Program-made: the position numbers and the translations under genes
Shown: in pieces, positions 24,923 to 28,754 of the stretch
How the letters are laid out: each line of letters starts with the position of its first letter
Position numbering within the stretch: position 1 is the first letter of the stretch
Source of the DNA: Parachlamydiales bacterium
GTDB lineage: Bacteria; Chlamydiota; Chlamydiia; Chlamydiales; JAJFMK01
Assembly: GCA_963765145.1 (NCBI GenBank)
Contig: CAVXVG010000027.1
Coordinates: 1 to 64,000 of the forward strand
DNA length: 64,000 nt
Direction of reading: 5' to 3'
The notes under the pieces: model-generated
The model's input: the letters and a program-made list of their open reading frames with translations, nothing else
Told to the model about the DNA's origin: nothing
The model's database searches: none

Positions 24923-25330
24923 ATGAAAAATGATAATGCTCCATCACTTTTTACAAAGCTATATTGGCTTACAAAAGATGGCTTAGTAAACGCTGAAGTC
25001 TTTTCGTATTTTTCAGAACTTTTTTGGCCAAAGTTCGTCAAGAAGCATGGACTTGTTTTTTTAGAGCAGGAGTATCTTGAAAGCAAATACGATCAGTTAC
25101 TTTTAAACAAAACTGATAACATCGAGTTCTGGATCAATTTGTTTTTGGTCAGTGTTTTTTTTGAAAAATCGGCAAAGCAGAAGGAAGAATCAGTGACATT
25201 ATCGAAAAAACTTGTTGAATGCTGGGGCGCAAAGTTAAAATTAGACTTCCCTGATTTGGAATTTGTAGTTTAAACTCTTTACGATGATGAAGAAAATGAA
25301 TATGGTTTGACCTTTTATCAGAACAAATGA
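24923..25330 (+). CDS. Putative immunity protein, module A copy 1 (in-frame TAA at 25271-25273)
   Basis: Abuts the toxin stop. Paralog 27963-28706 has CAA at the equivalent codon, and homology continues (EYGLTFYQ) to TGA 25330. Confidence 0.7.
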
Positions 25331-25569
25331 AACTTTCAGACGAGAATAATTTATATACATGGAATGATTCGGTTTTAATTAAGTCCAATGCCCCTTCTTC
25401 ATACTTTCCTGGAAAAAGTGCGGCTGTTTGCGGGATTGAGCAAGTGAAATCACAAGAGCTGGCGAGCGAATTTGAAATAAAAATCGGTGACTGGCTCTAT
25501 ACAGTTGAATTTGGGGATGGAAGCTCGATCGAAGTTCCAGAAATCTACCTGCAAGAGTATAAATATTGA
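25327..25569 (+). CDS. Putative immunity protein, module B copy 1
   Basis: W.D.V.IK..AP....PG....VCGI...W.YTVEF.DGSSIEVPE.YL family, repeated five times in the array. Confidence 0.75.
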   Translation: MKLSDENNLYTWNDSVLIKSNAPSSYFPGKSAAVCGIEQVKSQELASEFEIKIGDWLYTVEFGDGSSIEVPEIYLQEYKY

Positions 25570-25646
25570 AATCAATGCAGAGCTGGCCTCTGATCACTTC
25601 TCAGAAAATACATTAGTGCAAACACTTTAAGTGAAAGTTGATTGAA

Positions 25647-25884
25647 ATGGTGCGAAAAGAAAATAATAAATTCACTTGGGGGGGATGCGATTTGGGTAAA
25701 AAAAAATGCTCCTGAGCTTTATAGGCCTGGGGAATTTGGATCTGTTTGCGGAATAAGTCAAATTACTACGGATAAAGAAGCTGCTCAGTTGCAATGCAGC
25801 AACGGGGAGTGGATTTACATCATAGAGTATGAAGATGGCAGCTCAACGGAAATTCCTGAGTCTTTTTTAGAAGAATATGTTTGA
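25647..25884 (+). CDS. Putative immunity protein, module B copy 2 (one extra G in the G7 run near 25678-25684)
   Basis: Repaired sequence MVRKENNKFTWGDAIWVKKNAP...VCGI...WIYIIEYEDGSSTEIPE. Confidence 0.7.
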
Positions 25885-26126
25885 AGATAGTTATGCAAGA
25901 AGAATCTAGTAGTTTTGATTGGGGAGAAACTGTGCGAGTTAAAAGCACTGCCCCTATCATTTTTCGTCCAGGCGAAGTGGATTCTGTCTGTGGAATAACT
26001 AGAACTGAATCTGAAACTTTTGCAAAAAAGCATCATTCAAATATAGGTGAATGGGTTTATACCATTGAATATTTGGGAGGATCAGATATTGAAATCCTCG
26101 AACGATACTTAGAGAAATATGTTTGA
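25881..26126 (+). CDS. Putative immunity protein, module B copy 3
   Basis: FDWGETVRVKSTAP...VCGI...WVYTIEYLGGSDIEI. Confidence 0.75.
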   Translation: MKIVMQEESSSFDWGETVRVKSTAPIIFRPGEVDSVCGITRTESETFAKKHHSNIGEWVYTIEYLGGSDIEILERYLEKYV

Positions 26127-26595
26127 ACCTAAATTCTGCCTCCTTATTGAACAAGATGCATTTACAGATAAAAGTGCAGCATGCTTAGGATCTCAACTTG
26201 TCGAACTCATCGAATTTATGGATGAGAAACTTCCTGCTCATGAATGGTATGGAGCAAACGTGGTTGCCCCTGGCGTTGCATGGGTTGGATATGATAAATT
26301 TAAATTAAAATATATTGGTGAAACTGAAACTTTACTAGCTAAAGCACAGACAACCTTACAGTTTGAATATGGCGTTTTTGTTGCAATTGGATTGCCTTTT
26401 CTTTCACAAGTCATAGACGAAGAACTCGATACAGAAGACAAACGGTTTAGAAAAATCGCATTAGATGGTGTTTTAATTGAAATAAGGACTTTTGACTTCG
26501 GTTATTTTCTTATTTTTTCAGAAGAGAAAAGAATATTAGAAATCGTCAATACTTACTTTGGAGGACGAATAGAATCCATTGAAACATTCAATTAG
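26119..26595 (+). CDS. Putative immunity protein, module C copy 1
   Basis: Paralogous to the C-terminal part of 27234-27944 (AFTDKSAACLGSQL, TED.RFR.I..DGVLIEIR.FD). Confidence 0.75.
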   Translation: MFEPKFCLLIEQDAFTDKSAACLGSQLVELIEFMDEKLPAHEWYGANVVAPGVAWVGYDKFKLKYIGETETLLAKAQTTLQFEYGVFVAIGLPFLSQVIDEELDTEDKRFRKIALDGVLIEIRTFDFGYFLIFSEEKRILEIVNTYFGGRIESIETFN

Positions 26596-26647
26596 TAAAA
26601 ACATTCTTCACGACATTATACACGCTACAATAAAGCCCCAATAGATC

Positions 26648-27181
26648 ATGGGAAGATTTCTGCTAGTTCAAAGATACGATATGTCGAGTCCTTTTCGACC
26701 CAATATGGCCGCTAGACTTAAAATTCCAAATGCCACGGTTGAGCAAGTTTTGCAGCAATATCAAGGTTTTGAAGGAGAGCTTATTGATCTTATTGATGCA
26801 CGCTCTGATCCTTATGAGAATATGAGCATTCTTAAGAAATGTCTTAAGATTAAAGAGGAAAAAAACTGTCTGCTTTATTTCGTTGATTCCGACTTTAATG
26901 CTGTGGGAAGTGATTTGCAAAATGACGTCGTTAAAGTTGGTTATGATGTTGGCATCTGTGAAGAAGATGCCACACTCTACTCTTCAATTTTCAATGAGAT
27001 AATATTTGGTCATTTAGCAGAATTGATAGAGTTCAATAAATTTCTAAACAACAATTTGCTTTTTCCTGACAGCTCTTTTGCGATTGAATACATCAAAGTC
27101 CACAACGCGTTGTCAGCCCAGGGAAAAGATGTAGAAGACTACATGGAGATGTCCATTTATGAAATTTGGAAATATGTTTGA
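26648..27181 (+). CDS. Hypothetical protein, module D of the RHS-associated array
   Basis: 177-aa AT-rich ORF within the array (GYDVG...YSSIFNE). Confidence 0.7.
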   Translation: MGRFLLVQRYDMSSPFRPNMAARLKIPNATVEQVLQQYQGFEGELIDLIDARSDPYENMSILKKCLKIKEEKNCLLYFVDSDFNAVGSDLQNDVVKVGYDVGICEEDATLYSSIFNEIIFGHLAELIEFNKFLNNNLLFPDSSFAIEYIKVHNALSAQGKDVEDYMEMSIYEIWKYV

Positions 27182-27233
27182 ACCTCCTGCTGTTTCCTTA
27201 TTGAGCAAAACCCGTTTAACCTTTAGCTAGAAG

Positions 27234-27944
27234 GTGAATTTTGTGAGAGATGAAATTAATTTATTCACATGGAACGATTTAGTGGCGATTAAATCTAATG
27301 CTCCTAGCTTCTTTTCTCCCGGTGAAGTGGTGGTGGTTTGCGGAATAAGCCAAATCACTACTGATAAGGAAGCTGAGCAACTTCATTGTAAAAATAGAGA
27401 ATGGATTTACACCGTAGAGTTTGGAGATGGTAGTTCTATTGAAGTTCCTGAATCTTATTTAGAGAAGTATGTCGAACCTCAATGTTACCTCCTAATTGAA
27501 CAGGAGGCATTTACAGACAAAAGTGCCGCTTGCTTAGGATCTCAACTCATTGAACTGGCGCATTTCTTTGAACAAGCGGCTCCTTTCTGCACCTGGCATG
27601 CAGCAGACCTTGATTGTTATGGCAATGATCATCTGAGAGAGTTTTCTGGCTATTCATTAAAAAAACTGGGTGGATATAAAGAATTGATTCAGCTGTCTGA
27701 ACACACGGTTCAATTTCTTTCGGGAGTTTTTATAGCTGCTAATCATTCAGGCAAAATCGAGAAGACAATTGAAGTTTCGACAGAAGATGAGAGATTTCGC
27801 CCTATTGATTGCGATGGTGTCTTGATTGAAATAAGAGCTTTCGACACTTCCTACTTTGAAATTTATTCTGCGTCTGCTCATATTCTTGAAGAGCTTTCAA
27901 ACCATTTTGGAGGCAAAAATATTATCCCATGCGAAAGCAATTAG
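27234..27944 (+). CDS. Fused putative immunity protein, modules B4 + C2
   Basis: N-terminal B domain joined in frame (LEKYVEPQ) to a C domain. Confidence 0.75.
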   Translation: MNFVRDEINLFTWNDLVAIKSNAPSFFSPGEVVVVCGISQITTDKEAEQLHCKNREWIYTVEFGDGSSIEVPESYLEKYVEPQCYLLIEQEAFTDKSAACLGSQLIELAHFFEQAAPFCTWHAADLDCYGNDHLREFSGYSLKKLGGYKELIQLSEHTVQFLSGVFIAANHSGKIEKTIEVSTEDERFRPIDCDGVLIEIRAFDTSYFEIYSASAHILEELSNHFGGKNIIPCESN

Positions 27945-27962
27945 ATGGCGGCCTAGAATCGA

Positions 27963-28706
27963 ATGAAAAAAGACTATGCCCCATCACTTTTTACAAAGCT
28001 ATATTGGCTAACAAAAGATGGACTAGTAAATGCTGAAGTCTTTTCGTATTTTTCAGAACTTTTCTGGCCAAAGTTCGTCAAGAAGCATGGACTTGTTTTT
28101 TTAGAGCAGGAGTATTCTGACGCTCGGTACGATCAATTGCTTATAGACAAGACTGGCAACATCGAATTATGGATTAACTTGTTTTTGGTCAGTGATTATT
28201 TTGAAGGAATTGAAGATTCTAAAAAAGAATCTGTTCAATTGACGAAAAACCTTATTGAATCATGGGCAGCAAAATTGAAAACGGATTTTCCAGATCTAAA
28301 TTTTATTGTTCAATTTCTATGCAATGAGGATGAAGGTGAATACGGATTAACCTTTTATCAATCAAAAAATCGATCCTATGACTCAGAAGAAATCCCGTTT
28401 CCAAACATCAAGGAAAGTTGCTTAGAGGGCTTAAAGCCAGGAAAACCGACTATAAGACAAACGAGGCCTGATGAAATCCCTCACAACTATCTGTTTGATT
28501 GGGGAGAACCCGTGCGAGTTAAAAACACTGCCCCCTTCATTTTCCGTCCAGGCGAAGTGGTTTCTGTCTGTGGGATGACTAAAACTGAATCTGAAACTTT
28601 TGCAGAAAAGTATCATTCAAATATGGGCGAATGGGTTTATACCATTGAGTATTTGGGAGGGTCTGATATTGAAATCCCCGAACGATACTTAGAGAAACAT
28701 GTTTGA
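27963..28706 (+). CDS. Fused protein: module A2 + copy of toxin C-terminal tail + module B5
   Basis: A-like N-terminus, then IPFPNIKE...PGKPTIRQTRPDEIP, then a B domain nearly identical to B3. Confidence 0.75.
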   Translation: MKKDYAPSLFTKLYWLTKDGLVNAEVFSYFSELFWPKFVKKHGLVFLEQEYSDARYDQLLIDKTGNIELWINLFLVSDYFEGIEDSKKESVQLTKNLIESWAAKLKTDFPDLNFIVQFLCNEDEGEYGLTFYQSKNRSYDSEEIPFPNIKESCLEGLKPGKPTIRQTRPDEIPHNYLFDWGEPVRVKNTAPFIFRPGEVVSVCGMTKTESETFAEKYHSNMGEWVYTIEYLGGSDIEIPERYLEKHV

Positions 28707-28754
28707 ACCTCAATTCTGCCTCCTTAGCAACTCAAACTTTAATCCAAGAAATTA

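Follow-up and report, generated by a model that had tools for sequence, protein, structure and literature searches.

Why would a chlamydia carry ten modules of several uncharacterised families in a row behind a single Rhs toxin gene? The question is raised by a locus of a Parachlamydiales bacterium, found in a stretch of 64,000 nucleotides (the window, positions 1 to 64,000 of contig CAVXVG010000027.1; the whole genome is called G000 below). The answer that emerges from the comparison with related loci is that an intact Rhs protein, whose tip can be exchanged and is likely toxic, is probably followed by its cognate antidote (module A) and by a bank of orphan antidotes (modules B, C and D) directed against the tips of kin chlamydiae.

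The array contains two copies of A, five of B, two of C and one of D; order and copy numbers are those given in the initial annotation, and both of the C stubs reported there (27174 and 28699) exist. The five B domains share 37-84% identity (all-vs-all expectation values, E, of 1e-18 to 1e-42), the A copies are 77% identical and the C copies 46% (E 1e-37), and no further copy of any of the four modules was found elsewhere in the 2.68-Mb genome. All the modules are acidic, with isoelectric points of 4.0-5.5, and the guanine plus cytosine content of the array is 37%, compared with 43% for both the Rhs core and the gene downstream of the array. No family of Pfam or NCBIfam matches A, B, C or D (0 relevant matches among 121 B), and Imm50 and Imm53 are matched by 0 of 24 A proteins, which agrees with the earlier view that the modules lie outside known Imm domains. 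Promoter and terminator scans of the region gave results at chance level. At least four tandem genes lie on one strand with short gaps and no toxin gene between them, and their content varies among close strains, both of which characterise the polyimmunity loci of Zhang et al. (2012; PMC3482391), the immunity role being deduced here from neighbouring genes. The features, with predicted roles, are:

20186..24922, + strand: Rhs/YD-repeat protein, intact, 1578 amino acids (aa) (PF05593 2e-53, TIGR01643, TIGR03696)
24579..24580, no strand: probable tip-exchange point just past the hydrophobic stretch, where the kin copies L075 and G001 diverge
24635..24919, + strand: tip TA, divergent relative of Ntox24, predicted metal-independent RNase, with conserved H25, Y37, R50 and H56
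24923..25330, + strand: A1, putative immunity gene in cognate position, stopped by TAA at 25271-25273
25327..25569, + strand: B1, putative SH3-like orphan immunity gene of the clade paired with TB subtype alpha
25647..25884, + strand: B2, putative orphan immunity gene of the clade paired with one TB beta subtype, frameshifted
25881..26126, + strand: B3, putative orphan immunity gene of the clade paired with TB subtype gamma
26119..26595, + strand: C1, putative orphan immunity gene to TC, 71% identical to the G001 gene behind a TC tip
26648..27181, + strand: D, putative orphan immunity gene to an unnamed tip, here TD
27170..27233, + strand: shared junction (overlap of a gene end with a C start) and the C stub at 27174
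27234..27944, + strand: B4+C2 fusion, with C2 75% identical to the L075 gene behind a TC tip
27963..28373, + strand: A2, with an intact A domain, probably the immunity gene that works against TA
28398..28481, + strand: toxin-like tail of A, resembling the last ~30 residues of TA
28488..28706, + strand: B5, gamma clade, fused to A2+tail
28695..28730, + strand: terminal junction with the C stub at 28699

The Rhs protein is a polymorphic toxin by its YD/RHS repeats and its Rhs-associated core, which closes with DPNG; Rhs proteins cleave themselves after DPxG. Its N-terminus, starting at the ATG at 20201, resembles a signal peptide, and a similar short hydrophobic start, judged by eye, is present in most of twelve full-length Rhs starts. 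A hydrophobic stretch is located at about residues 1422-1460. The type VI markers PF05488, PF05638 and PF05943 (Hcp, VipB and PAAR were sought) gave 0 matches in the genome, which is 84.8% complete. Two other Rhs genes of G000 (C24:24736-31682, +, and C21:219680-226921, -) carry tips of ~270 aa that look alpha/beta-hydrolase-like by eye, and behind each of them stand paralogous genes with hydrophobic N-termini, in three near-identical copies on C24. At least 10 further Rhs-core matches, for instance C5:129434-134840 (-), C26, C7, C32 and C27:126386-130415, have different tips and short genes downstream.

The tip TA had been assigned to Ntox24, an assignment which holds for many of its relatives: 51 of 72 aligned relatives match PF15529 at E<=0.1 (best 4e-16). 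The window tip itself has no match in Pfam or NCBIfam; it gives no score on this family and does not reach the curated cut-off, and its membership is only transitive, through those relatives. The RNase activity of Ntox24 is itself a prediction in the available text of PMC3482391. H25, Y37 and H56 are invariant across 8 close tips, and Y37 and H56 are kept in at least 90% of the 72 relatives. The relatives number 172 at 50% clustering and occupy a C-terminal position in 133 of the 150 matches listed; among 300 other genomes of the phylum, 12 are matched by the window tip. A search of the Protein Data Bank (PDB) with the TA profile returned nothing under E 0.01, and the atlas match (0.92) is one cluster with 15% Ntox24 and a low recognition score, to be taken as a lead only. 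Kinship of TA with the tips TB and TC introduced below is unsupported by profile-profile comparison (probability 0.2-4.6%).

The partners of the modules can be read from their neighbourhoods. The locus had been called a poly-immunity cassette, and the survey of neighbours upheld this by placing A, B, C and D each behind a tip of its own elsewhere. It had also been reasoned that the idea would fall if the modules belonged to known non-immunity families or did not occur with tips in other loci; neither was seen, in Pfam/NCBIfam and in the neighbour survey respectively. In the window, A lies directly behind TA. Nine full TA tips were found in the loci recruited with this tip, followed by A in six, by a contig end in two and by an A stub of 21 residues in one, and a distant A follows a strong Ntox24 tip (L145, 3e-37). 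A is found in 22 of 400 genomes of the phylum, and a PDB sequence search with its profile gave nothing under E 0.01. The prediction of a tip-plus-module complex, which had been suggested as a check, was run for TA and A and reached a score of 0.50 against 0.01 for the best control, with runs agreeing in at least 67% of contacts and a partner pLDDT (predicted local distance difference test) of at least 85; it was rated as weak support, since in the calibration only 18 of 157 solved pairs scored 0.60 or less and the 2 of 215 mismatches that pass both did so too.

The B module is associated with the tip TB, which matches no Pfam family and no PDB chain (searches with the B and TB profiles gave nothing under E 0.01). 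After removal of the loci of the own genome and of six duplicate loci, 92 B matches remained, and TB is directly upstream of 52 of them (38 full, 14 partial); 11 follow another B, 7 are at a contig edge and 5 follow another module. Across 400 phylum genomes TB occurs in 29, B in 41, both in 26 and B without TB in 15, and the three TB genomes without B hold TB fragments or have TB at a contig end. Over 38 distinct TB-B pairs the distances of both partners correlate (rho 0.43, 0 of 999 permutations), and where an Rhs core is present (16 pairs) the B distance tracks TB (rho 0.58) and not the core (rho -0.07). The nearest B has the same TB class in 32 of 32 cases, whereas the nearest core does in 4 of 14. 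In the tree, B1 is placed with the alpha-paired B (SH-like approximate likelihood ratio test, SH-aLRT, 95), B3 and B5 with the gamma-paired ones (99) and B2 with one beta group (96), while B4 has an N half nearest to alpha (79%) and a C half nearest to beta (76%), which suggests that B4 is a chimera. It is proposed that several B copies are kept because each of them covers a different TB subtype. The model of B (pLDDT 90) is an SH3-like barrel of the KOW/Tudor/nitrile hydratase beta C-terminus kind, which informs on fold and not on family; the best hit of the fold search had Z 8.2, root-mean-square deviation 1.8 and 57 aligned residues, with many ties near 7-8, the best Foldseek E was 2e-3, and the atlas matches (0.89-0.90, DUF8139 and DUF3104) are leads only.

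The 33 genome loci recruited with B carry titles of Chlamydiota (20), Verrucomicrobiota (4), Bacteroidota (1) and Pseudomonadota (1), and 7 lack a title. Records without a chlamydial title also have B (L057 and L058): one of Bacteroidota has two copies, and one of Hyphomicrobiales has B together with TB. Fusion proteins of ~300 aa, in which B stands behind a doubled domain that is Imm53-like by eye, were observed in L011, L035, L129 and G124; in the last of these B is matched six times and TB not at all. B is also repeatedly fused to an unassigned C-terminal domain of ~120 aa, in L031:8497-9189, L037:7959-8579, L040:7992-8594, L043:4529-5179 and L045:2213-2815. In the family f35, 0 of 29-30 sampled small genomes (about 1.0-1.3 Mb) match A, B, D or TB.

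For the other two modules the pairing is similar. C, or its relative Cp, stands behind a TC tip in 8 of 9 cases; TC shows weak Ntox24 matches, and Cp aligns with C over 29 columns (hhalign probability 89%). Cp matches DUF2691 (PF10903) weakly, with E values of 2e-4 to 0.02 under the curated cut-off, whereas C1 and C2 give no match. D was found in 21 of 401 genomes, and TD, for which there is no Pfam match, is directly upstream in 11 of the 19 D loci examined. A family of ~190-215 aa with a GAYDGEGY-like end and no Pfam match recurs in the arrays L034, L037, L049, L050, L083 and L125, directly behind Ntox37-like tips in L050 and L125. In L090:2026-3909, another Rhs tip is followed by three paralogues in tandem, whose C-terminal end (CxxC...CxxC) is zinc-ribbon-like, and then by B and D.

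None of TB, TC and TD was found in G000 at its 84.8% completeness, and B, C and D thus appear as orphans in this strain. From these neighbourhoods, only A should neutralise the window tip, and B, C and D would pair with TB, TC and TD. C1 is 71% identical to the C of G001 and 39% to that of L075, while C2 is 75% identical to the C of L075 and 43% to that of G001; each would thus have its counterpart in a different relative.

These relatives carry the same locus with other contents. The Rhs core of L075 is 92.9% identical to that of the window in nucleotides (nt), over 2609 bp without gaps, up to position 24579, after which it has a TC tip, C, A+tail and B, and then the same downstream flank. 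At the locus the TC tip of G001 is followed by C, by a fragment of Cp and by D, and in G002 an Ntox37-like tip precedes A, with an unassigned gene in between. A conserved core thus bears three different tips in four copies of the locus, and the relation is reciprocal: the window strain has genes that follow the tips of its kin, and L075 and G002 have A. Public contigs matching the region, drawn from four metagenome studies of peat, were compared at 85% likeness, a level at which their joints may stem from other organisms or repeats. Among the matches listed, contigs of three of the four runs enter a TC tip at 24579/24580, and in three of the four the end of B5 is joined to the C stub before B4 (28711->27190). 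The three tips and these joints support a recombining locus, as had been supposed, and the copies show that module order varies among strains. A 15-base junction motif, formed where a C start overlaps the end of a B or D gene, occurs at 26115, 27170, 27465 and 28695, its only four places in the genome, and may be a crossover point. The array ends before an M50 peptidase with a TPR-like end, which is kept at the locus in G001 and G002; three open reading frames (ORFs) after it look like recC, recB and recD (peptidase and ORFs: window 28972-36713).

Several modules bear lesions. In A1 the in-frame TAA (25271-25273) precedes the conserved last strands, and the counterpart in the close relative P0123 reads through and bears the tail; with A1 truncated, A2 likely supplies self-immunity. 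B2 starts at ATG 25647 and its frame shifts in a run of seven G (25678-25684), which is one base shorter in one public contig. The fusion A2+tail+B5 is present only in the window: L075 and, among the matches listed, contigs of three of the four runs have an extra base at 28488, with which A+tail and B stay two distinct genes. The B4+C2 fusion differs in one base from the B3/C1 junction; no public contig among the matches listed bridges the spot, and the single-sequence model of the fusion is unusable (pLDDT 35). On comparison of the junctions, both fusions appear to have arisen from single-base losses. A conserved design of two fusions was ruled out, A+tail and B being separate in relatives.

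The segment behind A2 had been taken for a toxin tail. A segment like the toxin end is indeed present (38% identity across 52 aa; E 5e-6 in a comparison of the module set), but it belongs to an A subfamily as an old extension. It occurs in 7 of the 22 A genomes including that of the window, in frame in all but one, and does not have the conserved H, Y, R and H of TA. In a tree of 8 tails and 8 toxin ends, seven tails form one clade (99/98) and the eighth stands apart on a long, unsure branch. The raw proportion of nonsynonymous differences (pN) is below that of synonymous ones (pS) in 11 of 11 equal-length pairs (e.g. 0.03 vs 0.22 and 0.03 vs 0.26), values that come from 28-32 codons, with distant pairs near saturation and last codons that can overlap the start of the next gene. 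Two other origins were rejected: a fresh fragment of the window toxin, because the tail is 54% identical to the end of its own tip against 93% to the tail of L075, and a homology arm acting as DNA only, because pN is below pS in all of those pairs. On these alignments the tail is an old, conserved and selected extension of an A subfamily, and not debris of the window toxin; it might serve as a decoy or as a self-docking arm. A decayed set off the main locus of G001 (L139, G001:C1:2545051-2548458) holds a TA remnant, a broken A with an intact tail, and fragments of D and TB.

Several observations weigh against the reading of the array as an antidote bank. G000 is incomplete, and a TB, TC or TD gene may be missing from it; 17 of the 92 B matches follow something unassigned; the B and TB profiles were partly built from the collection that was later counted; and the TB classes were drawn post hoc from TB sequence only, "beta" being heterogeneous. 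The co-variation of B and TB shows co-inheritance as one unit and not binding. Besides, no single public contig among the matches listed spans the whole array, and the A1 stop, the B2 frameshift and the two one-base fusions fit decay as well as defence. Taken further, this last point gives an unlikely account in which the modules are passive debris of repeated tip replacement, former immunity genes that decay and are not kept for defence. It is favoured by the number of lesions within 3.8 kb (a stop, a frameshift and two one-base fusions, where 2609 aligned bases of Rhs core show no gap), by toxin remnants before B in 14 of 92 cases and by the fully decayed cassette L139 of G001. It fits poorly with the modules themselves: no TB, TC or TD remnant lies between them, the domains of B1, B3, B5, C1, C2, D and A2 are whole, the B copies span three distinct TB-linked clades, and C1 and C2 match tips used by close kin.

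The tips could also have the eukaryotic host or the producing cell as their target, in the latter case as growth control of the toxin-antitoxin kind, with modules that guard only against own tips. Self-protection would not call for orphans against three tips that were not found in the genome, nor for reciprocal orphans in kin, and host-directed toxins are marked by absent immunity genes according to the available text of PMC3482391; this makes the proposal very unlikely, even if chlamydiae are obligate intracellular bacteria, no type VI marker was found, Rhs elements are toxin-antitoxin modules in Salmonella (PMC7043789, available part) and Ntox24 is also present in toxin-antitoxin systems (PMC3482391). 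That the long array is a chimeric assembly of shorter arrays from several strains is highly improbable. The assembly has 37 contigs, 3.3% contamination and internal repeats of up to 233 nt at 91%; among the matches listed, public contigs show other module orders, none spans the array, and A1-B1, B1-B2, B2-B3, B3-C1, D-B4 and B4-C2 are unbridged. On the other hand, public contigs bridge the tip to A1 (24835-25141, 0 differences) and C1 to D (26116-26969, 3 differences), a diverged one bridges C2 to A2, the copies differ by 9-60%, and similar multi-module runs exist in L043, L067 and L083; the family pairings would stand even with a chimera. Finally, it is scarcely credible that B is an SH3-like adaptor or chaperone of TB-tipped Rhs proteins instead of an antidote: B holds the first place after TB, its sequence is acidic and varies with that of the tip rather than the Rhs core, and 15 of 41 genomes retain it without TB; in favour of the adaptor there is the SH3/KOW/Tudor-like fold of B, whose top-ranking structural matches include no immunity protein.

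Under the antidote-bank reading, the Rhs protein would be exported by its signal peptide and not by a type VI system, and would cleave after DPNG, so that the hydrophobic hairpin and the tip are released into an adjacent cell. Being acidic, the modules would attach to basic nuclease-like sites and block them, and crossovers in the Rhs core and in the shared 15-base junction would add and shuffle modules. A wider proposal, which is doubtful as a whole, adds that strains wage war on one another with signal-peptide-exported Rhs toxins and reciprocal kin antidotes, and that the A subfamily captured the last ~30 residues of the toxin, possibly twice independently, as a selected decoy or self-docking arm.

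Arrays of this kind are known in other bacteria. By its title, a work of Martinkus et al. (2026) reportedly deals with Rhs-linked orphan or poly-immunity arrays. In the available text of PMC3482391, extended polyimmunity loci are given only for proteobacteria, bacteroidetes, firmicutes and actinobacteria, and chlamydiae are named as bearers of Ntox24 and of some Imm families, yet not as one of those lineages. The window array shares with such loci the tandem, close-spaced immunity genes of several families on one strand, strain-variable and some of them fused; it differs in being headed by an intact Rhs toxin and in that A-D match no curated Imm model. Going by the available parts of the reports on Serratia Rhs1 (PMC10539506) and Stenotrophomonas vgrG6 (10.64898/2026.07.13.738213), a conserved Rhs core, an exchanged tip, a cognate immunity gene in first place and orphans behind it that match tips of other strains are common to both systems and the window. 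Those arrays are type VI cargo with PAAR, whereas the window Rhs is signal-peptide-like and Hcp, VipB and PAAR were not found; its swap point also lies after a hydrophobic stretch, and it has several subtype-specific paralogues of one family. Ntox24 (PF15529) is known with Imm50/Imm53; the TA relatives score on it, with Y, H and H conserved, while the window tip is unscored and its partner is A. The CRCT/CRCA pairs of Rickettsia (PMC9111745, available part) are likewise Rhs/CDI-like toxin-antidote pairs of obligate intracellular bacteria with a proposed in-host rivalry, but are single modules, in contrast to a full-length Rhs with a multi-family orphan array. The available text of PMC2811131 merely lists an Rhs cluster, and those of PMC11323580 and 10.64898/2026.09.22.753552 hold nothing on such a system. 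The literature search, with subscription papers and supplements outside its coverage, gave no report of Rhs immunity arrays in chlamydiae. The Rhs-linked poly-immunity array is thus of a known kind in a lineage that is new as far as searched; type VI delivery was not found, A-D are undescribed families with assigned partners, and a conserved toxin-like tail extends an A subfamily.

Chlamydiae live in host cells and have been studied mostly for their effects on hosts. Reciprocal orphan immunity among close kin implies encounters and attacks between these bacteria, which is relevant to the outcome of competition for a shared host cell and to DNA exchange among chlamydiae. The locus offers four toxin-immunity pairs (TA-A, TB-B, TC-C and TD-D), two of them with tips that match no Pfam family, and its subtype-level predictions of toxin and antidote are open to assays in E. 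coli. If true, an SH3-like antidote and an antidote with a conserved copy of a toxin tail would be new modes of neutralisation.

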